From NCBI RefSeq assembly GCF_963921235.1, contig NC_086107.1:97962001-98022000 (forward strand): a stretch of DNA of 60,000 nucleotides. Reading direction: 5' to 3'. This document shows positions 1,100 through 38,058 of the stretch, in pieces. Under the pieces are notes generated by a model. It saw only the letters and a list, made by a program, of their open reading frames with translations. It made no database searches and had not been told where the DNA came from. Within the stretch, counting starts at the first letter, position 1; every line of letters begins with the position of its first letter. The translations under genes and the position numbers were made by a program. Source of the stretch: Mobula hypostoma. Lineage: Eukaryota.

Positions 1100-3414
1100 T
1101 GAATTTAGTTGGGACCAGTTCCCAGCAAATTGAATTAGACCCGTCGATAGGCTTTTAACTAAATAGTTGGGGGTACGTGGTTTGCATGCAGGATATTTAG
1201 AAAACTGAAGGAAAAATTTTCAACATAATTGTATAAGGGCTAAGAGCGTTATAAAAGCGAGCCTGAAGGCTTTGTGTGTCAATGCAAGGAGCATTCGTAA
1301 CAAGGTGGATAAATTAAAAGTGCAGATTGTTATTAATAAATATGATATAGTTGGGATCACAGAGACATGGCTCCAGGGTGACCAGGGATGGGAGCTCAAC
1401 ATTCAGGAATATTCAATATTCAGGAGGGATAGACAGGAAAGAAAAGGAGGTGGGGTGGCGTTGCTGGTTAAAGGGGAGATTAACGCAATAGAAAGAAAGG
1501 ACATTAGCCCGGAGGATGTGGAATCAATATGGGTAGAGCTGCATAACACTGAGGGGCAGAAAGCACTGGTGGGAGTTGTGTACAGGCCACCTAACAGTAG
1601 TAGTGAGGTTGGGGATGGTATTAAGCAGGAAAATAGAAATGTGTGCAATAAAGGAACAGCAGTTATAATGGGTGACTTCTATCTACATATAGATTGGGTG
1701 AACCAAATTGGTAAGGGTGCTGAGGAAGAAGGTTTCTTGGAATGTATGCAGGATGGTTTTTTGAACCAACATGTCGAGGAAGCAACTAGAGAGCAGGCTA
1801 TTCTAGACTGGGTATTCAGCAATGAGGAAGGGTTAATTAGCAACGTTGCCCTGAGAGGCCCCTTCGGTAAGAGTGACCAAAATATAGTGGAATTCTTCAT
1901 TAAGATGGAGAGTGACATAGTTAATTCAGAAACAAAGGTTCTGAACTTAAAGAAGGGTAACTTTGAAGGTATGAGACGTGAATTAGGTAAGACAGACTGG
2001 CAAATGACACTTAAAGGGTTGACGGTGGATATGCAATGGCAAGCATTTAAAGATCGCATGGATGAACTACAACAATTGTTCATCCCAGTTTGGCAAAAGA
2101 ATAAATCAGGGAAAGTAGTGCACCCGTGGCTGACAAGGGAAATTAGGGATAGTATCAATTCCAAAGAAGAAGCATACAAGTTAGCCAGAAAAAGTGGCTC
2201 ACTTGAGGACTGGGAGAAATTCAGAGTCCAGCAGAGGAGGACAAAGAGCTTAATTAGGAAGGGGAAAACTGGCAGGGAACATAAAAACTGACTGTAAAAG
2301 CTTTTATAGATATGTGAAAAGAAAAAGATTGGTTAAGACAAATGTGGGTCCCTACAGAGAGAAACAGGTGAATTGATTATGGGGAGCAAGGACATGGCAG
2401 ACCAATTGAATAACTACTTTGGTTCTGTCTTCACTAAGGAGGACATAAATAATCTTCCGGAAATAGTAGGGGACAGAGGGTCCAGTGAGACGGAGGAACT
2501 GAGGGAAATACATGTTAGTAAGGAAGTGGTGTTAGGTAAATTGAAGGGATTAAAGGCAGATAAATCCCCAGGGCCAGATGGTCTGCATCTCAGAGTGCTT
2601 AAGGAAGTAGCCCAAGAAATAGTGGATGTATTAGTGATAATTTTTCAAAACTCTTTAAATTCTGGATTAGTTCCTGAGGATTGGAGGGTGGCTAATGTAA
2701 CCCCGCTTTTTGAAAAAGGAGGGAGAGAGAAACCGGGGAATTATAGACCGGTTAGCCTCACATTGGTGGTGGGGAAAATGCTAGTCAGTTATCAAAGATG
2801 TGATAACAGCACATTTGGAAAGCGGTGAAATCATCGGACAAAGTCAACATGGATTTGTGAAAGGAAAATCATGTCTGACGAATCTCATAGAATTTTTTGA
2901 GGATGTAACTAGTAGAGTGGATTAGGGAGAACCAGTGAATGTGGTATATATGGATTTTCAAAAGGCTTTTGACAAGGTCCCACACAGGAGATTAGTGTGC
3001 AAACTTAAAGCACATGGTATTGGGGGTAAGGTATTGATGTGGATAGAGAATTGGTTGGCAGACAGGAAGCAAAAAGTGGGAATAAACGGGACCTTTTCAG
3101 AATGGCAGGCAGTGACTAATGGGATACCGCAAGGCTCAGTGCTGGGACCCCAGTTGTTTACAATATATATTAATGACTTAGATGAGGGAATTAAATGCAG
3201 CATCTCCAAGTTTGCGGATGACACAAAGCTGGGTGGCAGTGTTAGCTGTGAGGAGGATGCTAAGAGGATGCAGGGTGACTTGGATAGGTTAGGTGAGTGG
3301 GCAAATTCATGGCAGATGCAATTTAATGTGGATAAATATGAGGTTATCCACTTTGGTGGCAAAAACAGGAAAACAGATTATTATCTGAATGGTGGCCGAT
3401 TAGGGAAAGGGGAG
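1100..3414 (+). mobile_element. CR1 LINE, 5' part: APE endonuclease and RT (ORF2, frameshifted), in DDX17 intron 12
   Basis: NARSIRNK, GITETWL, YRPPNS and IMGDF endonuclease motifs; KSPGPDG, NYRPVSLT, DFQKAFDKV, GIPQGSVLGP and FADD RT motifs; left boundary approximate. Confidence 0.93.
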
Positions 3415-4786
3415 CTGTTAAGCATACTTTACGTATATGGTTTCAATTTCGAAGATTTTTTGGGTTTAATCAATTTATGTTAGCAAGTCCTATTATATCT
3501 AATTTCCTTTTTCAACCTTCCACTATGGATCAAGCTTACTTTGATTGGAAAACCAAAGGTATAGTACATTTTCATGATGATTTATTTTTGGATAATTGTT
3601 TCATGTCTTTTCATCAACTTTCTAATAAATATAACTTACCCAGATCTCACTTTTTTAGGTATCTACAGATTAGAAACTTTTTAATTACTGCTTCTCCTAA
3701 TTTTCCACACTCATATCCAATGGATACTTTGGAAAAAATTTTAGATCTAAATCTCTCTCAGAAAAGTGTTGTAGCAATTATTTATAATATAATTATGAAT
3801 TTATGTCCTGATCTTTCCAATAAAATTAAAGCTGATTGGGAAAGAGAACTTAAGATTATTATACCAATTGAAAAATAGGAAAAAATTCTTCAGTTGGTGA
3901 ATTCATCCTCTGTATGTGCTAAACATGTGTTGATACAGTTTAAAGTAGTGCACCGGCCTCATATGTCCAAAGATAAACTATCTCGTTATTATTCTCATAT
4001 TAATCCAATATGTGATAGATGTCATTCCGAGATAGCTTCTTTAACCCACATGTTTTGGTCATGTACTTTGTTGGAAAAATATTGGAAAGATATTTTTGAT
4101 ATTATTTCAACGGTGTTGAACACAGACTTACAACCTCTTCCAATTACTGCTGTTTTTGGATTACCAATGATAGACTCAAATTATTTAACCTCTTCAGCAC
4201 GCCGGATGATTGCATTTCTTACTCTAATGGCTAGAAGATCCATTTTGCTGAATTGGAAAGAGATTAACCCTCCTACTATAGTTCATTGGTTTTCACAAAC
4301 TAAGTTGTGTTTGAATTTGGAAAAAATTAGAAGTGTGGTTTATGACCCTTCCATTAAACTTGAAAAAACTTGGAGGCCATTCATTCAGCATTTTCATATG
4401 ATGTAATTTGATCATTTCCAAACTTATTTTACTTCTCTGTGCTGTTGGTTGAGAGGAATGGAGTCGTTGACACTAAAGTTTTCTTCTCTTCCATTTTTAC
4501 GTTGTTAGAATTGCCCAAGTCTTTTTAGTTTAGTTGACTAATTCTGTTTAGTTTTTCTTTTGGGGTGGGGTTTGTTCTTTTTTTTCTTTTTTTTTCATAA
4601 TTTTTTTTCCAGTTTTTTTTGTTCTGTAGTATTCATTGTTATCCTACACAATTGGGAGTTTTGTCAATTTATACTATTTGGTTTTATAATTACTCAATTT
4701 AAGTACAACAATGTATCTCCAACTACTTGTATTATTGCTATGTTATGTTTATATTTTATGAAACTAATAAAAAGATTGAAAAAGAA
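3415..4786 (+). mobile_element. 5'-truncated L1-clade LINE inserted into the CR1
   Basis: ORF2 C-terminus VKHTLRIWFQF...CDRCHSEIASLTHMFWSC (CCHC zinc knuckle) with one in-frame TAG at 3876-3878; T-rich 3' UTR, AATAAA 4766-4771, A-rich tail; 13-bp TSD at 3402-3414 and 4787-4799. Confidence 0.92.
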
Positions 4787-5534
4787 AGGAAAAGGGGAGG
4801 TGCAATGAGACCTGGGTGTCATTATACACCAGTCATTGAAAGTGGGCATGCAGGTACAGCAGGCGGAGAAAAAGGCGAATGGTATGCTGGCATTCATAGC
4901 AAGACGATTCGAGTACAGGAGCAGGGAGGTACTACTGCAATTGTACAAGGCCTTGGTGAGACCACACCTGGAGTGTTGTGTGCAGTTTTGGTCCCCTAAT
5001 CTGAGGAAAGACATCCTTGCCGTAGAGGGAGTACAACGAAGGTTCACCAGATTGATTCCTGGGATGGCAGGACTTTCATATGATGAAAGACTGGATCGAC
5101 TAGGCTTATAATAATTGGAACTTAGAAGATTGAGGGAGGATCTTATTGAAACATATAAAATCCTAAAGGGATTGGACAGGCTAGATGCAGGAAGATTGTT
5201 CTCAATGTTGGAGAAGTCCAAAACGAGGGGTCACAGTTTGAGGAGAAAGGGGAAGCCTTTTAGGACCCAGAGTAGGAAAAACTTCTTCACACAGAGAGTG
5301 GTAAATCTGTGGAATTCTCTGCCACAGGAAACAGTTGAGGCCAGTTCATTGGCTATATTTAAGAGGGAGTTAGATATGGCCCTTGTGGCTAAAGGGATCG
5401 GGGGTATGGGGGGGGGGGGAAGGCTGGTACAGGGTTCTGAGTTGGATGATCAGCCATGATCATACTGAATGGCGGTACAGGCTCAAAGGGCCGAATGGCC
5501 TACTCCTGCACCTATTTTCTATGTTTCTATGTTT
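4787..5534 (+). mobile_element. CR1 LINE, 3' part, continuing the element interrupted at 3414
   Basis: LYKALVRPHLE..VQFWSP, KTRGHSL and FFTQRVVNLWNSLP; ends in the (TTCTATGT)n CR1 tail. Confidence 0.93.
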
Positions 5535-6480: not shown

Positions 6481-7146
6481 ACTAAATGACCTACTACTTC
6501 AAGAAATGGCAGCAAATACCTCATTATGGACTATGGCTTGCTGCTAAATACCAGCAATTCTTGACACCCAGAACTCCCATTGAGTTTAGGATTCCCACTA
6601 ATCCACAATCTTTCTAGACTGAATGCCACAGGTTATTTTCCAACTGTAGTCTGACGCCAGGGCTGCACAGAATTGTGATTCTGGGATTCTAATATTTCTG
6701 AAGATCTTTAGAGAGGTCTAACAATTGAAGCAACCCCTGAAAACAAGTTCACTGAAGTAACTGCAGAAGCTGAGTTCTTGATCACATCTGTTAGCAGCAA
6801 ACATGGCAAATGCTGGTTTGGCAGTTCCAGAGGTACCTTTAAAAACACTGTCCAACTATGGAGAAGCTTAAAAGCAGGATTCAGGTCTTTGTGCTCAAGG
6901 TGAGTAATCAATATTTTAAACAGGATTAGATTTTATCTGACACCAAGGCAGCTTTACATATTGTTATTACTACAGTGTTCATTTAAAATATTAATCACTT
7001 TAACTTGAAAGACACTGATAATCTTGTACAATTGCAGTCAATTCCACACAACAGGCCTGCAAGCAAAATGACAGCTCCACTGAAGAAGCATTACCTGGTG
7101 TCTCAGCTGGATTTTATAGTTTCCAAAGTAAAACAAAAGCACTTAC

Positions 7147-7380
7147 CTCTTCCACTTCCTCTTCCATGATCAACAAGCTGTAGCAGCTTTGGATTAATAG
7201 CTTGGCTGGCCTCTTCCAATACCTTGATCAGCTCCCTAGCCTGTTTCACATTGCCTGGTGTGAAGAAGGTGTAGGCTGTGCCTTTATTTGTACTGCGAGC
7301 TGTACGACCAATGCGATGTACGTAGTCTTCAGAGGAATTGGGGTAGTCGTAATTGATGACAAATTTGATGTCTTCCACGT
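7147..7380 (-). CDS. DDX17: DDX17 exon 12 (motif VI)
   Basis: cag|...|gtaagt, 234 nt; [87 protein letters not shown] and [11 protein letters not shown] distinguish DDX17 from DDX5. Final exon not found in the window. Confidence 0.97.
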
Positions 7381-7483
7381 CTGTAAAAGCAGAATTGCAG
7401 TGTGGTGTGGAAAGGTGGGGGATGTGCCAGTTTGAACCAGCACAAGCAGTACACCACAACAGCCAGGTAGAAAGAAGAGTTAG
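7381..7483 (-). ncRNA. miR-3064-like intronic hairpin at the 3' end of DDX17 intron 11 (probably a cis-acting RNA structure)
   Basis: Sense strand has CTGGCTGTTGTGGTGT (7466-7451) and CCACACTGCAA (7405-7395), matching from memory the 5p and 3p arms of mir-3064 at the end of DDX5 intron 11; TGTGGTGT pairs with ACACCACA. Confidence 0.55.
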
Positions 7484-10400
7484 AACAAGATTTAGTACAA
7501 GCACCCCTTACAGTCCATGTTTACAGTATTGGCCTTCCATGCAAAGAGCTTAAACCCACACCATGCTTTGAGCAAAAACCTCACAAACCAAAAGGCAGAA
7601 CACTGAGCACAAAAGTATAAAACAAATTTATTACTGACCCACATTCGGTGTTCAGAACCCTAATACACCCACCTCAAGAAAATGGAAAAACTGAGGCCTG
7701 TTTCATTGAGTAAGCCTGCTCCTCTTTGCTTAAGTTGCAGCTATAAAGTGGAAGACTTATTTGATTTTCATCAAATTCTAACTATTTTACTCACTAGGTG
7801 GATATAAATCTGAGTGAGGAGAAACTTGAGATTGAAATAAGACTTTACAACAGACCGTGCCACCTTTTAAACAATTCCAAGGAATTGTATGTTCATTCTC
7901 ATCTCAAAGTTCAAATACTACCATAACCTTTGCTTTTGTCCTTCCTGTAACAATTGAACTAAATGGCTAAAAAGTTGTTCAGCTTTTCAAATATCTATTT
8001 GCTGCAACAATTAAACCTTTAAAATAGATCAGGAGCAGCTTAGGTCTAAAGCAATACTATGCCGCCAAACTCAACCAGTTTTTGAAGTCAGATGAAGCCA
8101 GTCACATTGTACCACCTCACATCCTGCTTTCCATTATTAAAGTACACAGGGACAATAACCAAGAACCTTTACACATTGAAAATATATCTCAGATGACACA
8201 TGGAAGAACACTTGAAAATATCCTCTGAAATTCCCACTATGAATCTGACAATCCATAAGCTTCAGAATTAAGTTCCAATCTATCCCTGACAACTGACACC
8301 TCCAAGCAACATTCACCAAATTTTATGAACCAAGAATGCATGCTTTAAATCTATGTTTAGACTACCACTCTGGAAAAGAAACCTGTGGGCAAAAATACAG
8401 ATTAGATAAATTCACACATTACATTACTGCCCGAACCTCTATATATATTTTTTTTAAATAAACAGCAGTACACAGGTATTCCACCAATTTACCATATTTA
8501 AAATACTATTTCAATGGACGCAGTTACAAAACGGGGCAATTTTTTTAAAGATCTGGAAGACTCAGAGATAAGGCTACTTTTTCGCACAATGTAGACTAGA
8601 CCAATCTTCACCAAAGGTCCGAAACAAAACCAGTTCAAATTTCAGTGCAAAATAACATTATTTAATTCTGGCCTAAATAGGTAGTAAAGGAATACTCCCT
8701 TCTTGTCTTCTTAATGTAGCATTATTACAAATCTTCAAACATTATGGTTGTCAGGGTTAGAAATTACCATAGCATCACTGGTCCATGAAAATCAGAATCA
8801 ATCTGCACAAAACCAAGGTGGACCATAACTGCTAATACTGGATCTGGACATGCTATTCTCAATACAAAAACTATTATCATTTCAGGGAAATTCATTAACA
8901 CATATCAAAAGAAGTCACCTTTTGTTCAGGTTATGAAAACTAGAAAGATCAAGTGCTGATTTTGAACTGATAATACTGTAAATGGCAGATTACTTGGTAG
9001 CCCAATTGCAAATCCACGTCATACTAAATATAAACCTCTGAATAACCAAGAGGAAAGGTATCAACATCCAAAACCCAGGAGATTAGAACTACAAAAACTA
9101 CAAGAATTTGTTATGGAGCTGAAAGATTGTGATGCATCCCAGCTTAGACTATTACACTGCCACCCACTACAGCACAATCACTACTTGGACCATTATAATG
9201 ACCAGCATTAAAATCTATCCTGATATTTGTGGATGAGGATTCAAAGTTTGTTAATCCAACATCATCTGGGGTTCAGTTTGTAAAATGACAGGGGCGCTGG
9301 AATGCAGAATCCTGATCTTCGATGTAATTCATTCACTGCGCTAAGCTAATGAAATCAGTTTGCTTACCAGTCACTGTATGGTAATTTTTAACCCAACAGA
9401 CAACTCCAGATTTGGCATGTTGTCATTGAAATCCATACTTTAAAGTTGAAATCCAGAATAAATTTCGACTTCCTCCCTTCTGTGTTGAATAGTATTTACC
9501 AGTCCGATGCACACTCCCGTTTCTCTGGTTCTGGCGGTCTCCTTTCGACCTCCGCCATGCGACATGGGACCAGTGGAGCTGGGAGAGCATGCATCGAGCA
9601 TTCCCTTGTAGCGAGAAGTCTCACACGTTGGGATGGATGGCTTTTCTGCAGCCCGACTTTCATGTAGCACCAGAGGACCGCAGTCATTAAATAAGGTCCT
9701 CAAACCCAATCTCTCCAATAACTCCCAGCCCACACTGCATCTATTGCCCAGACTCAAATTATTTTTTTTTTCTTTACAATTTACTGACAAACTATTTTTC
9801 AAGTCTGTTTCTCATTACAAAAATGGGCTCAAGTTTCACTTGCTATTTCTTATTTCATTAGCGAGTGTTTCTATGTTGAATCCCAAGACAGCAATAAACA
9901 AGAGACAGAGAGGAAAAGTGTACATGAGAAATGAAAAATATTCATATTAAAGCACATATTGATATCAAATAGAAATGGACACAAACAAATAATGTACACA
10001 AGATACAGATCTCAGGTAGCCAGCTTTGATCTGTACCCCATTCTAAAAGGGCAACTCCATTTATATCACAGTGAAGCCAAAAGCTTACACCATAATTGTA
10101 ACCTACTGTGCAAAGTTGTTGCCAGCATCCTCTTTAGGTTCTAGTCTCATAATTCACATTCCAGGGTGCATTTTACACTTTAAGCTGTAAGTGATTGCAA
10201 AGCCCAATTATTTTCCCTACTTCTTGGATCACCAAGAACTCCGAAAAAAATACTGGAAATTGAATACAGTGGCACCCTCTTATTGTCTGAACAGTGCAAT
10301 ACCCTAAGAATAAAAGGAAGTGAAAAGAATACAAGAAAATCTACATAACAGCACCTGCGTGCTTCATGGTCAACCTGGCGATAACCCCACTTGGACTCTA

Positions 10401-13400
10401 GACCCTATGTTGGCTGACCTGTGTACTTCAAGTTACAGAATTTTTTAAAGTATCCTATTATTTTGAGAAACAATCAGACTGTCAAAACCAAACAATAACA
10501 ATATTTGGTCATTCATGATGCAATACAAGAGTCTTCTTGTTCACCGTCTCTATTTTTATCCCTGTCCAGTAGCATACTTCCCACTGACTGGCAAGAGATG
10601 GCTCTGATAGTGCAGCTGTGAAGACCTTCTGTGGAGTAACTCCTGCAAATCCAATCCTAGCTGATGATACAAAGGACAGGAAAGTTATTATGTTAAGGAA
10701 TAGGGACAGGAAAAAGTGTGGAACATTAAAGTCTAGATTCTCTCAAGTATCGTTTTGAATAAGTTTTAGCATAATCCTGCAACAGCCTGTATATAACATA
10801 AACTGCATATTTAAAAAAAAAATCTGAGCCCATTGTTAATGCCAGACTGGGAAAAATACTAGGTAACGCATCTGTTGTGGACATTTGATCAAAATGTGTC
10901 GTAGCTATACTAGTTTTTATAATAGTCGCGCCTTCTTGGAAAGTTTCCCATACACAAAGCCCCAGACCCAAATATGCACCTTCAAGGTGGCACCTTGACA
11001 AAGTTGTCCATTGGCTCTCCTATGCCTCAGAACAAATTTTTCCCAGCCTGATGTAATCAATAGGTAACAAGAAACAGACTGACCTAAATGAAATAGTTCT
11101 CAGTTTTGTATCAAATTCAACAGTGTCTAGGCAAGATGCAGAAAGCAGCAATCTACTCATTCCTACCTTCAAACCTTTTTGCAACCCGCTTTTCGGGCAG
11201 TGAAACCTCAGACAGGCCCAAGATGTAACCGGACAAGCCCCGACATGACGTCCTGTGAAGGTGAGGGAGATACTTGGCATGCTTGGCAGTAGGGGTTTCA
11301 CAATAGTTGAGAGTAAACTGTTTGCACCACATTACTCCACTTCATAAGAAACCATACCCCGAAGATTGCAATAGAGCCACAAATCCACAATATTCCAGAT
11401 GGATCAGTTGGCCTCTTGCTGCGAACCAGCGGGGATCAAGTAGTTTCTTCTGTATCCGTACTAAGAATGAGCAAACTGTTCCAACTGGAATTCCCCCATT
11501 AAGGGACATTTTTTCCAAAGATGACATAATCTAAACTTGTAGCCAAATCCTGCAGAGACCAAGGACACAATACCATTAATTCCTATCTTACTGCCTTTGC
11601 CCGTTAAAGGGGAGGTTATTTCGGAACAGTCTGTCCATCTCAGTCTGAAATAGTGGGCCAGTAACAGTCAGTCCATGCAGTCTTCCCATCCACATCAGTG
11701 GCTAGAAAGGTTTATTTCTAGCTCCAAGTCACTTAACAGATTGATTGCAGAACTGGCCTGCCATTTAAATGCAGTGCTCGGTGTGAAACCCCTAATCAGC
11801 AGACATTTCCACACGCCCCTTAGTTTCAGCAAGTAAACCAATTATCAGGTGTGTCAAATTTGAATGAGGGGAGAAAGTCAGATTTCAACAGGGGAATTTT
11901 GGTTCTGCTTTCAATTTTCTGATCTTGGAATTGGCTTGTGCTGGTTTTAAATGAACAGGGCTTCAGATAATGATGCTTGCCAGTAAAATATTAAGATTGT
12001 ACTGGATTCCAGCAGTTAGAAAATTAAAGCAGTATAGTTGTAAAAGAGCTCTTCTGGACCAAACTGGGGACATATCATGTTAAGTTGCATCCGCCTCTTT
12101 AAAAAAGAAAGTTAATCCTAACCCATTTCAACACCAATTATCAGAATACCCACAAATATTGCAGGCTGCGTCAACTATCAGAACTACTCCATGGTAGTCA
12201 CTTACAAATACAAGCTCGTTAATCAAAACTGCTTCAGCAAGTCAGTAAAAAGTATTTTACATGTGCACATATAGCACATTAGTACTGTTGCCAACCGACC
12301 AAATACCAAACTGCCTGCATCTGTCAAGAAAACAAGCATTTCATTTAAATAATACAAACCAATGACATTAGTATATAACAAAAACATGCTTCAAAGGGAA
12401 TGCTTCAATGTCCCTTAATGGGCATCTGAATTGCACCACTGTAGTCTCCAAACTTCTAATATGTATTCCCCTACATTATTGCATATCATACTGTCAACTC
12501 TTACAGTGTCATATACATTACACTGAAAAATTGCTGTTCTGTAGGAAGCAACTGATATCATGATATGGATTCCATTCATTTAATTGAAATTCACAGTTCA
12601 AAAGTAATCTAGATAGGCGTTAACTCCTAATAACTTTATACCTGGCATTAAACTGCCCTGTGGTTAAATATTAAACCTGGTGACCACCCAAAAATAAACA
12701 CTACTAAATACTTATATCTGCTTCTTCCTTAGCGACAAAACCAAGACTCTTATCTAAATCGAGAGCCCACAGTGCACATAGCCATTAATCCAGCCCCATT
12801 GTACACTAATCTGGTATAGATGGGAAAGACTACCTGGAACTAAAATGGATAAAGCTCCACTGGTTCAGTACTACACTATGCTAGTTTGATAGGCAAGTCA
12901 AGATGTTTAAGATATTCTCTTCAAAAGTGGCAGGGAGTGGGGCTTCAATTCCAAGTGAGCAAGCCATGCTGGAAATCCAGTCAGTTGACAAACACATCAT
13001 CTGAAGACCCTATTTATTTTAATGAACCAATCTGCTGCAGAGGTTGAACCAGACAGTGCCAGGGCGAGCTGGATAACGGCAGATGGGGTAAACATTATCC
13101 GTAGACCCCAAATTTTGGACAGCCAGCCCAGTGCATAGGGGTTAAAGGCCCCACATGGTAAGGCTAAGCTTGGTTTATGTAGGTGGCGGTAGATGGATAT
13201 CTCCTCTCCCTCTTGGTGCTCGTTTTGTCATGCCTAGGCCTTGCCGCAGGCCTGTACCTTAATATAAAAACAAAGAGATATTTTAAAAAACAAAATTAAG
13301 CCACTTAGTTAACATACTCAAGATGGTGAGGATATCATGGTTCGTCACTTTAACTACAATCTCTCCCAAGTCAGAAAATTTCAGAGTCTGTTCTGAAAAG

Positions 13401-13430
13401 CATTTTTCTGTAAACAAGTCAAGTACAAAC
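7381..13430 (-). other. DDX17: DDX17 intron 11 (6050 nt), with no recognisable transposons; equivalent to the conserved retained intron of DDX5/DDX17
   Basis: Bounded by the exon 11 donor GTTTGT and the exon 12 acceptor TTACAG; no CR1, SINE or Penelope signatures seen by eye, unlike the other large introns. Confidence 0.85.
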
Positions 13431-13490
13431 CTAAACCTCGAGATGCAACGTCAGTTGCAATAAGGATGGGTGCTTTTCCTGATCGGAATT
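13431..13490 (-). CDS. DDX17: DDX17 exon 11 (motif V)
   Basis: cag|...|gtttgt (weak donor), 60 nt; EFRSGKAPILIATDVASRGL. Confidence 0.96.
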   Translation of the reverse strand, partial: NSDQEKHPSLLQLTLHLEV

Positions 13491-15840
13491 CTGCAGAAAG
13501 AACAGAAAAGTGCTTTACTTAAAAAAGACAAAACCAGGATATTTTCTCTTTCAACTCCGTCATTTTTTCAGTTAATTTTAAGTAATTAAAATAGAAGCCA
13601 GTCTAAAGGATGCAGATTTTCCTGCAGAATATTCTTGCTCCAAGGAGAACAAAAGATAAACAATAATTTGTGCAGATCAGAATGATTTCTCATGTCCAAG
13701 TACAGGACATCAGCCCAAGACACTTCACACTAGATCACATAACAAATATATACCATTTGTCAAATATGTAAATTTTATGGAAACATAAGGCGTGCTCATC
13801 TCCCAGAATGTTCAACAGAAAGCGGAATATAGTCAAAGCGAGTACATAGTTGGCATAACAACATTCAATAAAATTAAACAGCAGTTCAATGAACACAGTT
13901 ATACTTCAAGTTACTGTTAACATATTAACCACTGCAAAAGGGGTGGTGCTTCTGGAGAATGGAACTGAACCCAATTTAATGCATTTATGCCAAGCAATGT
14001 AAATATTACATTTCCAGATTTAAAATACACAAATTTTTAAAACAGTCATGAACGGGGCAAAATTCAAAAGCTAAGAGCACAACCAAAGAACAGTTGTAAA
14101 TATATAACAGCTAAACAACCACAGAAATAATCAAAATTAGCTAGAAATGTTCTGTTAGATACGTTAATATTAAATATCACAAATGGGGATCAGTGAACTC
14201 CAGGTATTATCACTCCTCTTTGCTTGTGACCTTAAGATATCAGAAAGGGCAGTATAAATTATGTAAAGATCACTGTGAAGAGAGCCTACAGCTAGAAACA
14301 ATTAACATTCTGCACTAGCGGCAGGATGAATAGAAAAGAAAAACCCATTTAGGGAGATAATGTAGAACCAGGCAGCATAGATTCAGAGTCATGCACAAAT
14401 TCTGAAAGGTATTCAGATTAAGGATCAAATTTATTTTAATTTAAGAAAGCTCAAGTCTTAAGGAAATTAGCAGGATCAGAAAGTAATTAGTGCATTAACA
14501 AAATAGGCAATAAAGGACAACCTAACAAAGATGGAAGGGGTGGAACAAAGTTAAGGGTTATCCATGTGAAGCTACGATACACGTCACAGGCATCTAAGTA
14601 AAAGGAGTATTTAACTCTAATAATTACTACTGACAGGTTATTTTGAATATTGCCTACCTATCTTCTAAAATTTAAATTCAACAAGATGAAAGACTGAAAT
14701 ATCAACTGTTTCCTTCTCCGGAGATGTAGCCTGACCTGGTGAGTACAAAGAGCATTTCTGATTTTTATTCAGAGATGTAGCCTGAGCTGCTGAGTATACA
14801 GAGCATTTTTGGTTTTCATCTAACTTCCAGCATTAGCATTTTTGTGTTCTGTGGGAAAACAGGCATTAAGATGATGCTGATTCTAACTAATTAAGAAGTA
14901 AAAGAGCCAGACTGAATACGTTGACGTGGATATATACAATAGGATCGCAAGAGCCTGATAGTCAGTCAATCTGAAAAGTGTTCTGGGGCAGCACTGAGAT
15001 AGTGGCACAATCCCGATATCATGGGAATTGCTGCACTCCAAGGTTGGAAAAGTAACCTAGTTAATGCATAAAAGCCAACTAGGTTTTAAATCAAGGCAGG
15101 CATAACAGTAGCAGAATGCAAATTTTGTGCCTGGTATTATCTGAGGTACCAGGGAGTTTTCCTTTCAGAGTAAGTAGTTTAGTCCAAAAATGTTCAATGG
15201 ACGAAAGACTCCTCTCTAAGTTCTTATGTACTATGAAACCCGCTTTTGATCTGTAATGAGTAAGGAAGTATTACAAAATTTTAAAAAAGCTGCAGTTCAT
15301 GTAATGTTTAAGCAACTCATTACAATATTCATGTGAGCATTGACTGCATTTTGTTATTTATAAAAACTTTGCTTGCAACAGCCAAATATGAAAGTACAAT
15401 CCGCTCCCCCCCCCCGCCCCCCCATCTTTGGCGATTCCAGAAAGAGGCTGACATATGAAGAAAGGTTAAGTAAGTTGATCCTCACGGAAGCTCAGGAGAG
15501 TGAAGTGACCTTCTTGAAACTAACATTCTGAAGGGGATTGGTAACGGATTGTTTTTCCTCAAGGTGGGTATATACAAGCAGGAGGAATAGCTTCAGTCAC
15601 CAGTTTCAGGTGGAGACGGGGAGGAATGTCTTTCACAGCTAGAAATCCTCAAAATCCTTTACCCTAAAAAGATGCGGAGACAGCACCACTAGATATAATC
15701 AAGATAGAGATTGACAGATATTTAAAATAAAAAGGAGTCAGAAAGATTGGGCAGAAGATTTGATCAACTACAACAGTGACAAAGTAAACTCAAGGACAAA
15801 GTGGCCGACTTCTGTTTCTTATGTTATTTAATATTCTTAC

Positions 15841-27599: not shown

Positions 27600-28400
27600 A
27601 GGTCAAACCCCTCTACTCCGGGTTTGTGGAAGGGCTAAAGCCCATGGCTCAGGTCTATGGGTAGCAAGGTCAAATCCTCGTAGCCGAGGTGTAGGAATCA
27701 AAAAGCCCCCTATGCCCCACAGCCCAGGTGTGGGGGAAAAGTCAAAGCCCCATAGCCCAGGTGTATGGGGATGGTCAGTGCCCCACAGCCCAGGTGTACG
27801 GGGATGGTCAGTGCCCCACAGCCCAGGTGTACGTGGCAAGGTCAGTGCCCCACAGCCCAGGTGTATGGGGTGGTCAGTGCCCCACAGCCCAGGTGTGGGG
27901 GAAAAGTCAAAGCCCCACAGCTCAGGTGTACGGGGATGGTCAGTGCCCCACAGCCCAGGTGTACGGGGAAAGGTCGGTGCCCCACAGCCCAGGTGTACGG
28001 GGGAAGGTCAGTGCCCCACAGCCCAGGTGTAGGGGGAAGGTCAGTGCCCCACAGCCCAGGTGTAGGGGGAAGGTCAGTGCCCCACAGCCCAGGTTTACGG
28101 GGAAGGTCAGTGCCCCACAGCCCAGGTGTACTGGGAAGATCAAACCTCATAGACCAGGTATTTGGGTGGGTGGGAGGGGGGAATCGAAGCCTCATAGCCC
28201 AGCTTTAGTTGGAAGGTCAAAGCCCTTAGTCCAGTATACAGGGAAGGTCAAAACCCACTGCTGAGGTGTAGAGGGGAGGTCAAAGCCCCATAACCCAGGG
28301 GTACAGGGAAGGTCAAAGCCCTAGAGCACAGATACAGGGAAAGGTTGAAGCTGGTGAAGTCCATTGTGGGAGGAAAGTTCAAACACCTAGAGCCCTGCTG
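27600..28400. repeat. 32-34 bp minisatellite (consensus ~GGTCAGTGCCCCACAGCCCAGGTGTACGGGGAA); 13 well-preserved units at ~27712-28135 with degenerate flanking units
   Basis: CAGGT(G) recurs at 27725, 27758, 27791, 27824, 27858, 27890, 27923, 27956, 27990, 28024, 28057, 28090 and 28123. Confidence 0.95.
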
Positions 28401-35812: not shown

Positions 35813-38058
35813 ATAGAAACATAGAAAATAGGTGCAGGAGTAGGCCATTTGGCCCTTCGAGCCTGCACTGCCATTTATTATGATCATGGCTGATCATCCA
35901 ACTCAGAACCCCGCCCCAGCCTTCCCTCCATACCCCCTGACCCCCGTAGCCACAAGGGCCATATCTAACTCCCTCTTAAATATAGCCAATGAACTGGCCT
36001 CAACTGTTTCCTGTGGCAGAGAATTCCACAGATTCACCACTCTCTGTGTGAAGAAGTTTTTCCTAATCTCGGTCCTAAAAGGCTTCCCCTCTATCCTCAA
36101 ACTGTGGCCCCTCGTTTTGGACTTCCCCAACATCGGGAACAATCTTCCTGCATCTAGCCTGTCCAATCCCTTTAGGATCTTATACGTTTCAATCAGTTCC
36201 CCCCTCAATCTTCTAAATTCCAACGAGTACAAGTCCAGTTCATCCAGTCTTTCTTCATATGAAAGTCCTGCCATCCCAGGAATCAATCTGGTGAACCTTC
36301 TTTGTACTCCCTCTATGGCAAGGATGTCTTTCCTCAGATTAGGGGACCAAAACTGCACACAATACTCCAGGTGTGGTCTCACCAAGGCCTTGTACAACTG
36401 CAGTAGTACCTCCCTGCTCCTGTACTCGAATCCTCTCGCTATAAATGCCAGCATACCATTCGCCTTTTTCTCTGCCTGCTGTACCTGCAGGCCCACTTTC
36501 AATGACTGGTGTATAATGACAGCCAGGTCTCGTTGCACCTCCCCTTTTCCTAATCGGCCACCATTCAGATAATAATCTGTTTTCCTATTTTTGCCACCAA
36601 AGTGGATAACTTCACATTTATCCACATTAAATTGCATCTGCCATGAATTTGCCCACTCACCCAACCTATCCAAGTCACCCTGCATCCTCTTAGCATCCGC
36701 CTCACAGTTAACATCCAGCTTCGTGTCATCCGCAAACTTGGAGATGCTGCATTTAATTCCCTCATCCAAGTCATTAATATATATTGTAAACAACTGGGGT
36801 CCCAGCACTGAGCCTTGCGGTACCCCACTAGTCACCGCCTGCCATTCTGAAAAGGTCCCGTTTATTCCCACTCTTTGCTTCCTGTCTGCTAACCAATTCT
36901 CCACCCATACCAATACCTTACCCCCAATACCGTGTGCTTTAAGTTTGCACACTAATCTCCTGTGTGGGACCTTGTCAAAAGCCTTTTGAAAATCCAAATA
37001 TACCACATCCACTGGTTCTCCCCTATCCACTCTACTAGTTACATCCTCAAAAAATTCTATGAGATTCGTCAGACATGATTTTCCTTTCACAAATCCATGC
37101 TGACTTTGTCTGATCATTTCACCGCTTTCCAAATGTGCTGTTATCACATCTTTGATAACTGACTCCAGCAGTTTCACCACCACCGACGTTAGGCTAACCG
37201 GTCTATAATTCCCCGGTTTCTCTCTCCCTCCTTTTTTAAAAAGTGGAGTTACATTAGCCACCCTCCAATCCTCAGGAACTAGTCCAGAATCTAACGAGTT
37301 TTGAAAAATTATCACTAATGCATCCACTATTTCTTGGGCTACTTCCTTAAGCACTCTAGGATGCAGACCATCTGGCCCTGGGGATTTATCTGCCTTCAAT
37401 CCCTTCAATCTACCTAACATCACTTCCCTACTAACATATATTTCGCTCAGTTCCTCCATCTCACTGGACCCTCTGTCCCCTACTATTTCTGGAAGATTAT
37501 TTATGTTCTCCTTAGTGAAGACAGAACCAAAGTAATTATTCAATTCGTCTGCCATGTCCTTGCTCCCCATAATCAATTCACCTGTTTCTGTCTGCTGGGG
37601 ACCTACATTTGTCTTTACCAGTCTTTTCCTTTTTACATATCTATAAAAGCTTTTACAGTCCGTTTTTATGTTCCCTGCCAGTTTTCTCTCATAATCTTTT
37701 TCCCCCCTCCTAATTAAGCCCTTTGTCCTCCTCTGCTGAACTCTGAATTTCTCCCAGTCCTCAGGTGAGCCACTTTCTCTGGCTAATTTGTATGCTTCTT
37801 CTTTGGAATTGATACTATCCCTAATTTCCCTTGTCAGCCACGGGTGCACTACCTTCCTTGATTTATTCTTTTGCCAAACTGGGATGAACAATTGTTGTAG
37901 TTCATCCATGCAACCTTTAAATGCTTGCCATTGCATATCCACCGTCAATCCTTTAAGTGTCATTTGCCAGTCTATCTTAGCTAATTCACGTCTCATACCT
38001 TCAAAGTTACCCCTCTTTAAGTTCAGAACCTTTGTTTCTGAATTAACTATGTCACTCT
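35813..38058 (-). mobile_element. Young 5'-truncated CR1 LINE with an open 697-aa RT frame, in DMC1 intron 12; same subfamily as the copy at 1100-5534
   Basis: ORF 35903-37996 carries all RT motifs; tail atagaaacatagaaa; near-identical by eye to the copy at 1910-5534. Confidence 0.96.

Follow-up and report, generated by a model that had tools for sequence, protein, structure and literature searches.

A predicted bulged hairpin downstream of a poison exon in the retained DDX17 intron of Mobula hypostoma

Gene, retained intron and poison exon

The window analysed here, a 60,000-nucleotide (nt) stretch of Mobula hypostoma contig NC_086107.1 (positions 97,962,001 to 98,022,000), bears a DDX5/DDX17-type DEAD-box gene on its minus strand. 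Within one intron of this gene lies the element of interest, 79 nt at positions 13057-13135, which an initial annotation had described as a candidate H-type RNA pseudoknot inside an enclosing stem. All positions are those of the window, and features lie on the minus strand unless stated otherwise. The identity of the gene, the intron, its strong retention, the use of a poison-exon acceptor and a set of conserved motifs are established here. The 79 nt are no free-standing RNA, and we read them tentatively as a nested bulged hairpin that belongs to the processing signals around the poison exon.

Two exons of the gene were found to match human DDX17 best among solved structures in the Protein Data Bank (PDB), with scores of 142.2 and 106.4 bits; for the second exon, the 106.4 bits for DDX17 compare with 67.1 bits for a DDX5 chain that covered part of the query. 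These matches bear out the assignment of the host gene to DDX17 on the minus strand. Spliced contigs and a tblastn exon map define a 61-nt coding exon at 13431..13491, which reads ...ATDVASRGL, ends in ...EFRSGKAPILIATDVASRGL and closes in phase 1, and spliced contigs place the next coding exon at 7380-7146. The intron between them (7381..13430) is 6050 nt long and has GT..AG ends, with a weak donor, TAG^GTTTGT (^ marks the splice boundary). The junction joining 7380 to 13431 is spliced in contigs from three of the four RNA runs (X6, X17 and X11), which confirms that the element lies inside a DDX17 intron. The label "intron 11" given to it presumably derives from the 13-exon human gene, and the incomplete exon map obtained here is compatible with that numbering.

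Retention of this intron was judged by contig depth, a crude measure. In run X6 a single contig spans 7353-13460 at a depth of 327.8, against 336.4 for the contig with the spliced junction and 740-752 for the flanking exons; the intron upstream has a depth of 8.6, a 38-fold gap to the retained intron. The corresponding depths in X17 were 397-746 for the intron, 776.8 for the junction and 10.9 for the upstream intron, and in X11 the intron contig had a depth of 18 and the junction contig 91.4, no contig falling on the upstream intron. Intron retention thus runs at about half of exon depth in the RNA contigs, and the strong retention of this 6050-nt intron relative to its neighbour, of the type called detained, is a solid result.

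The poison-exon acceptor is the AG at 13259-13258, so that the first exon base is 13257. A contig from run X19, which comes from a more distant relative, splices 13431 directly to 13257, and use of this acceptor is therefore real. Entered in phase 1, the exon is read through 27 codons to a TAA at 13177-13175, which gives a poison exon of 13175..13257 from acceptor to in-frame stop on the evidence of the X19 contig and the reading frame. Over 13180-13255 the X19 sequence is identical at 76 of 76 letters, and its adjoining coding exon differs at 8 of 63. The depth of X19 is 2-4, at which its lack of coverage of 13057-13135 is uninformative. The candidate poison exon of the initial annotation is thereby supported, and the distance of about 65 nt that had been given from its stop to the element agrees with the 64-65 nt we measured from the TAA to the core of the element. 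The core begins 147 nt downstream of the poison-exon acceptor.

The end of the poison exon can be drawn in two ways. Among the GT sites in 13300-12850, ranked with a general consensus matrix, the sole plausible donor after the stop is the weak candidate CAT^GTGGGG (13149..13157, GT at 13154-13153), which would give an exon of 103 nt; the GGGG of this donor (13152-13149) is able to pair with CCCC (13141-13138) in the predicted fold. Further downstream, sequence inspection and a k-mer test against the DDX5 paralogue described below point to a unit resembling a poly(A) site (12988..13026), in which the overlapping hexamers ATTAAA (13023-13018) and AATAAA (13018-13013) are followed by the GU-rich TGTGTTTGT (12996-12988). 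The motif TTCATTAAAA, which contains a poly(A) hexamer, occurs at +231 from the acceptor in DDX17 and at +217 in DDX5, and in the paralogue it is likewise followed by a GU-/U-rich run, the whole lying about 217-260 nt past the poison-exon acceptor of that gene. This shared poly(A)-signal motif raises the question of an alternative terminal exon, and from the sequence the poison exon may also serve as one, with an intronic poly(A) site. The element starts about 20 nt past the weak donor and ends about 34 nt before the DDX5-shared poly(A)-signal motif. Depending on where the exon ends, it would belong to the intron, immediately downstream of the poison exon, or to the 3' untranslated region (UTR) of a truncated isoform.

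Sequence, folding and chance frequency of the element

Read 5' to 3' on the minus strand, the core of the element consists of the 5' arm of stem 1, TGGGGT (13110-13105); loop 1, CTAC (13104-13101); the 5' arm of stem 2, GGATAATG (13100-13093); loop 2, TTT (13092-13090); the 3' arm of stem 1, ACCCCA (13089-13084); loop 3, TCTGC (13083-13079); and the 3' arm of stem 2, CGTTATCC (13078-13071). Stem 1 has six Watson-Crick pairs, and stem 2 (13071..13100) has eight pairs including one U-G. The arms are interleaved in the H-type order S1a-S2a-S1b-S2b with loops of 4, 3 and 5 nt (13110-13071). The letters, coordinates, order and loop sizes in the initial annotation match the sequence exactly, and the enclosing pairs that it drew (GGGC/GCCC, GGCT/AGCT and TGC/GCA) were recovered in the minimum free energy (MFE) fold of 13135-13057, where TGC/GCA, GGGC (13129-13126)/GCCC (13065-13062) and GGCTG/CAGCT form a bulged outer stem around the core.

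The MFE of the nested 79-nt fold was -28.9 kcal/mol, with a z-score of -1.99, and 7 of 200 shuffled sequences were equal or better. This fold holds the outer stem, stem 1 and a 3-bp inner tip (ACG/UGU) closed around a GAUAA loop, the hairpin of stem 1 and tip occupying 13084..13110; stem 2 is left out. In the nested ensemble the pairs of stem 1 have probabilities of 0.97-1.0 and those of stem 2 a probability of 0.001, and imposing stem 2 on the 79-nt fold costs 5.1 kcal/mol. Stem 2 and the hairpin tip compete for nucleotides 13102-13093. As stand-alone hairpins, stem 1 with its tip has an energy of -11.6 kcal/mol and stem 2 of -6.2 kcal/mol. A rough estimate puts the pseudoknot form of the 40-nt core at -15.0 to -15.8 kcal/mol, against -11.6 kcal/mol for its best nested fold; the estimate is an approximation composed of stacking terms of -14.3 and -12.1 and of textbook-type penalties of our own choosing. 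By this approximate model the pseudoknot would be energetically feasible, and nothing beyond feasibility is claimed for it.

It had been argued that the G-U pairs of the element work only on the DDX17 sense strand. This holds for the pairs themselves and does not extend to overall stability. The antisense strand of the same 79 nt folds at -27.7 kcal/mol (z = -2.46; 3 of 200 shuffles equal or better), and since it folds about equally well there is no strand asymmetry in overall stability despite the sense-only G-U pairs. On a fixed grid of 150 segments of 80 nt across the intron, the mean z-score was -0.05, and three segments reached z <= -2. Segments covering the element fell between -0.5 and -1.0.

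The frequency of the interleaved pattern was determined by scanning both strands of the window for a 6-bp Watson-Crick stem interleaved with an 8-bp stem having at most one G-U pair, with loops limited to 1-8, 0-6 and 2-12 nt. Three loci were found in the real sequence: the element, a site at 27626-27593 that falls within tandem copies of a 33-nt repeat, and a stretch of (AT)n. Dinucleotide-shuffled versions of the window had a mean of 1.77 such loci each, with one or more in 48 of 60. The observed stacking sum of -26.0 kcal/mol was equalled or undercut at 7 of 89 loci from shuffled sequence, which came from 7 of the 50 shuffled windows. These results indicate that the interleaved pattern is at chance level for 60 kb. 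With stem 2 also lacking a place in the nested ensemble, the H-type pseudoknot is not sustained as a selected structure; stem 2 is most likely a chance pairing, or at most an alternative one, and no selected pseudoknot.

Searches for a known RNA class at the element were negative. Rfam covariance models, including the exoribonuclease-resistant RNA (xrRNA) types, small nucleolar RNAs (snoRNAs) and microRNAs (miRNAs), gave no match at E <= 1 over 7000-13600, and over 11500-15000 just three weak, unrelated matches, so that the Rfam comparison proposed with the initial annotation assigns the element to no family. No tRNA-like fold was detected at the element, and a protein search with a 76-codon open frame that crosses it found nothing. 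A DNA search with 311 nt around the element returned a single copy in its own genome, the search giving a lower bound on copy number; with this single copy and no tRNA-like fold, an origin from a repeat or a tRNA-derived short interspersed element was rejected. A canonical G-quadruplex was likewise rejected on reading the sequence, where the G-runs are 15-20 nt apart.

The DDX5 paralogue and other related sequences

The same genome contains one close paralogue of the gene, 79% identical to it across the next exon; the exon pair recurs there around an intron of 1280 nt, and we take the paralogue to be DDX5 from protein similarity. A blastn comparison of the two introns revealed a conserved block at 13201..13267, including GGCCTAGGCATGACA at 13240-13226, that comprises the acceptor and the first 56 nt or so of the poison exon (13267-13201; 75.7% identity over 70 nt, E = 1.6e-7). 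The shared letters of the block are read in different frames in DDX17 and DDX5, and the constraint therefore acts on the RNA and not on a peptide. Within the element, a shared k-mer test identified C-rich motifs common to DDX5 (13059..13092). TTTACCC (13092-13086) is found at +165 from the acceptor in DDX17 and at +162 in DDX5, and CTCGCCCTGG (13068-13059) at +189 and +187, respectively; the former is the 3' arm of stem 1 and the latter the 3' arm of the outer stem. In a diagonal band of +/-20, two shared 10-mers were observed against 0.013 expected (reached by 3 of 1000 shuffles) and six shared 8-mers against 0.25 expected (1 of 1000 shuffles).

The pairing partners of these motifs are less well kept. 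In MAFFT alignment A3 the paralogue retains 2 of the 6 pairs of stem 1 and 3 of the 8 pairs of stem 2 in register, the other five of stem 2 being broken, and the proportion of paired cells, 67.9%, was equalled by 254 of 500 partner shuffles. The two stems drawn in the initial annotation are thus conserved in DDX5 no better than shuffled partners would be. RNAalifold applied to the two paralogues kept two G-C pairs of stem 1 together with the 3-bp tip, with a consensus energy of -3 kcal/mol. Within the tip, the changes between the paralogues are one compensatory exchange of C-G to U-A and one of G-U to G-C, and an off-register GGCGG/CCGCC stem in DDX5 closes the same conserved loop letters. What is left of stem 2 in DDX5 is a 4-bp pairing (AACA/TGTT), changed on both sides and at another spacing. 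Taken together, this single paralogue comparison lends modest support to a nested hairpin. Contigs from organisms B and C also cover the element, at a divergence of 1-2% that makes them hardly informative for covariation.

Three further observations were made in comparing these sequences. Positions 9726-9759 of the DDX17 intron match positions 822-855 of the DDX5 intron over 34 nt with 82% identity (E = 4.4e-4). About 70-105 nt past its acceptor, the DDX5 intron has a donor-like GAT^GTGATC inside a predicted 12-bp hairpin (TGTG.TCGGCTGG ... CCAGTCGA.TACA), and a splice site masked by structure in this way would fit helicase-dependent control. Finally, a conserved CGAG in the exon could pair with the CTCG of the outer stem, a long-range idea that draws on two sequences.

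Orthologues were also sought more widely. Screening metagenome contigs for the conserved motif of the poison exon yielded one match, on a bacterial contig without further similarity, which was dismissed as chance. A protein-guided scan of contigs from prokaryote genomes returned four loci. Three contigs from metagenome-assembled genomes, with 49-68% identity, presumably hold bacterial DEAD-box genes. A 2.3-kb contig of the Pararhizobium haloflavum assembly (NZ_NWUC01000030.1) encodes, without introns, a eukaryote-type DDX5/DDX17-like helicase of about 500 residues that is 71% identical to the queried exon, and is probably cDNA-like contamination of eukaryotic origin.

Several other features of the window were recorded. 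In the same intron, 10872-11061 (minus strand) is a second strongly conserved, expressed block, for which a 193-nt contig from X19 shows 5 differing letters and 6 gap positions; the coding exons of X19 differ by about 11-13%, and the block has no Rfam match. A weak box C/D snoRNA-like match to snoMe28S-Gm1083 at 11820-11897 (minus strand; 22.7 bits against a gathering threshold of 48, E = 0.68) is missing at E <= 1 in the wider scan and is probably a chance match. A 33-nt G+C-rich tandem repeat is present in about 14-20 copies at 27683-28364, within G+C-rich sequence that precedes the first mapped DDX17 coding exon and is likely to be the promoter or first-intron region. Inverted copies of about 2.2-3.6 kb, 91-96% alike and 30-35 kb apart, bracket DDX17 at 1909-5530 and 35813-38058; one of them has a 360-codon open frame (1209-2291, plus strand), and they probably represent a young transposable element.

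Interpretation and known systems

We give a probability of about 0.35 to the reading that the retained DDX17 intron has a processing-control region at its 5' end, of which the 79 nt form a part, acting as a nested, helicase-sensitive bulged hairpin. In the cell the fold would be a plain nested one, made up of the outer stem, the GGGG/CCCC pairs of stem 1 and the 3-bp tip, with the G-runs held by the DDX5-conserved C-rich motifs TTTACCC and CTCGCCCTGG. Such a hairpin could be a substrate of DDX5/DDX17 helicase activity, and its opening would free the G-runs and the C-motifs for splicing or 3'-end factors. The freed motifs may then favour unproductive processing, either inclusion of the poison exon or intronic polyadenylation, and high helicase activity would in this way lower the amount of productive DDX17 mRNA. 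The opening step is proposed by analogy with three systems, here as described in the available parts of the respective sources: the plant DDX5 homologue DRH1, which senses its own helicase activity by an intronic hairpin (10.64898/2026.01.23.701338); the control of p72 by p68, which lowers it through partly spliced pre-mRNA (PMC1920232); and the joint action of DDX5/DDX17 and hnRNP H/F on G-tracts that follow weak donors (Dardenne et al. 2014, via PMC13126168 and 10.64898/2025.12.18.694734).

Several results weigh against this reading. No junction from the donor at 13154 to the next constitutive exon was found among the contigs, and use of the poly(A) site has no supporting read and no loose contig end listed near 13000, contigs being unable to show ends. 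Downstream of the acceptor block, global alignment similarity between the paralogues was rejected as non-significant, with 22-35 of 400 shuffles as good by alignment score under four schemes, and 276 of 500 and 112 of 500 as good under stricter scoring. The k-mer test was designed after the motifs had been noticed, stem 1 is largely out of register in DDX5, and the comparative support comes from two sequences in an uncertain alignment, MAFFT alignments A1 and A2 putting CTCGCCCTGG out of register. The thermodynamics are also unremarkable. The z-score of -1.99 belongs to a hand-framed 79 nt; a 111-nt frame gave -1.18 and a 273-nt frame, reaching from the acceptor as far as the poly(A) signal, +0.42, their DDX5 counterparts gave +0.38 and -1.4, and the five grid segments within 13300-13000 ranged from -0.49 to -0.97 with one at +0.34. 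The equally good folding of the antisense strand points the same way.

Nearly as probable is a reading in which the complementarity arose by chance and has no structural role, and splicing or 3'-end factors recognise TTTACCC, CTCGCCCTGG and TTCATTAAAA as linear sites. The pattern counts and stacking sums of the shuffled windows are what this would predict, the z-scores are ordinary and alike on both strands, the sequences facing the conserved C-rich motifs on the 5' side are out of register in DDX5, and one of the conserved motifs is no more than a poly(A) hexamer followed by a GU-rich run. On the other hand, the same conserved loop letters are closed by a G/C stem in both paralogues, the differences in the hairpin tip all fall in the loop or preserve pairs, and the element lies in a region of the transcript that is abundant and long-lived enough for folding.

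A genuine H-type pseudoknot, with stems 1 and 2 formed together inside the outer stem as a compact fold, appears unlikely. It might serve as a protein platform or as a roadblock to an exonuclease or helicase, either in RNA that retains the intron or as 3' UTR sequence of a truncated isoform. Both stems are perfect save for one U-G pair, loop lengths of 4, 3 and 5 nt look sterically adequate to us on general geometry, the rough energy of the core is better than that of the nested fold, and four pairs of stem 2 can still form in DDX5 with both sides changed. Nevertheless, the pattern is at chance level in the window, stem 2 is mostly broken in register in DDX5 with its remnant at another spacing, and it competes with a hairpin tip common to both paralogues; Rfam, xrRNA types included, has no match in the region scanned. 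Action of the readthrough or frameshift type requires a closer stop codon, and at 64 nt past the stop the element is too distant for it. The shared use of nucleotides 13102-13093 by stem 2 and the tip, and the stability of each hairpin alone, would also suit a two-state switch in which a helicase or protein shifts the balance between a stem-2 hairpin and one made of stem 1 plus the tip; mutually exclusive conformers had already been raised in the initial annotation. We consider such a switch very unlikely, as the state with stem 2 is 5.1 kcal/mol worse within the 79 nt, with a probability of 0.001, and stem 2 lacks comparative support in DDX5.

The most far-reaching proposal is that a helicase-sensing fold, whether pseudoknot or stem-1/stem-2 switch, lies past an ultraconserved poison exon in vertebrate DDX17, is altered in DDX5, and is the counterpart of the plant DEAD motif and of the yeast DBP2 intron. 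We regard this as improbable; if it were true, DDX5-type helicases of three kingdoms would gauge their own unwinding via a fold in one and the same conserved intron. As master regulators, DDX5 and DDX17 act on splicing, miRNA processing and transcription, and their dosage is tightly held, partly via this intron. Were the element a true helicase sensor, it would supply the cis-element of a feedback loop that has been known in outline since the 1990s and is unmapped in vertebrates, and it would link the vertebrate loop to the recently described plant mechanism. Useful in any case are the negative result on the pseudoknot and the map of the module, namely the acceptor, the paralogue-shared block, the retention and the poly(A)-signal motif, in a genome whose repeats suggest an early-branching vertebrate.

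Much of the setting is already in print, to judge from the accessible portions of the sources. The DBP2 intron is described as autoregulatory and poorly spliced, with a position that is kept all the way from the yeast gene to human DDX5 (PMC4695336; Kilchert et al. 2015), and an autoregulatory conserved intron is credited there to Barta & Iggo 1995 and Moore et al. 2011 (as cited in PMC4695336). Use of the human DDX17 poison exon and intron retention have been validated by reverse transcription PCR (PMC12894984; 10.1101/2025.11.04.686193). Both this processing of human DDX17 and the conserved intron, the latter since the 1990s, are thus known. A limited, title-level literature search found no report of RNA structure in this DDX17 intron, nor, judged by titles and the starts of abstracts, of intronic polyadenylation at this site.

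The intron of yeast DBP2, S. pombe dbp2 and human p68 belongs to the same gene family, stands at the equivalent place after ...ARGL and is poorly spliced or retained, and in the excerpts available it lowers helicase expression. According to the same excerpts, yeast dbp2 differs in relying on Mmi1/exosome decay or helicase-dependent retention, without a poison exon. The yeast DBP2 intron is likened here by its position and behaviour, the sequence and structure of the element standing outside that comparison. Human DDX17 transcripts that include a poison exon or keep an intron respond to perturbation, intron retention being described for DDX5 too, as far as the available text of the sources goes (PMC12894984; 10.1101/2025.11.04.686193; PMC5688624; PMC1920232). 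The human DDX17 poison exon is likened by gene, its host intron and any RNA structure being unstated in the available passages of PMC12894984. The hnRNP H/F cases resemble this locus in having a weak donor followed by G-runs, here 13152-13149, 13129-13127 and 13109-13106, all paired in the predicted fold; the tracts in those cases, in the portions of the sources at hand, are G-quadruplex-prone, whereas the runs here are too widely spaced for a canonical quadruplex.

The element is no member of the plant DEAD motif family (DRH1/RH46). As described in the accessible part of its source, that motif is a single hairpin of 19-20 bp with a 3-5-nt loop, overlaps an alternative 3' splice site, and has R-scape-supported covariation in 353 instances, whereas the element is a short bulged hairpin (6 bp plus 3 bp within the outer stem) located 120-200 nt downstream of the acceptor. 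The likeness lies in the arrangement reported there: a long intron of a DDX5-type helicase gene holds a structured RNA, which adjoins alternative splice sites that give isoforms with premature termination codons as well as intron retention, and whose unwinding by the helicase itself has been proposed as negative feedback.

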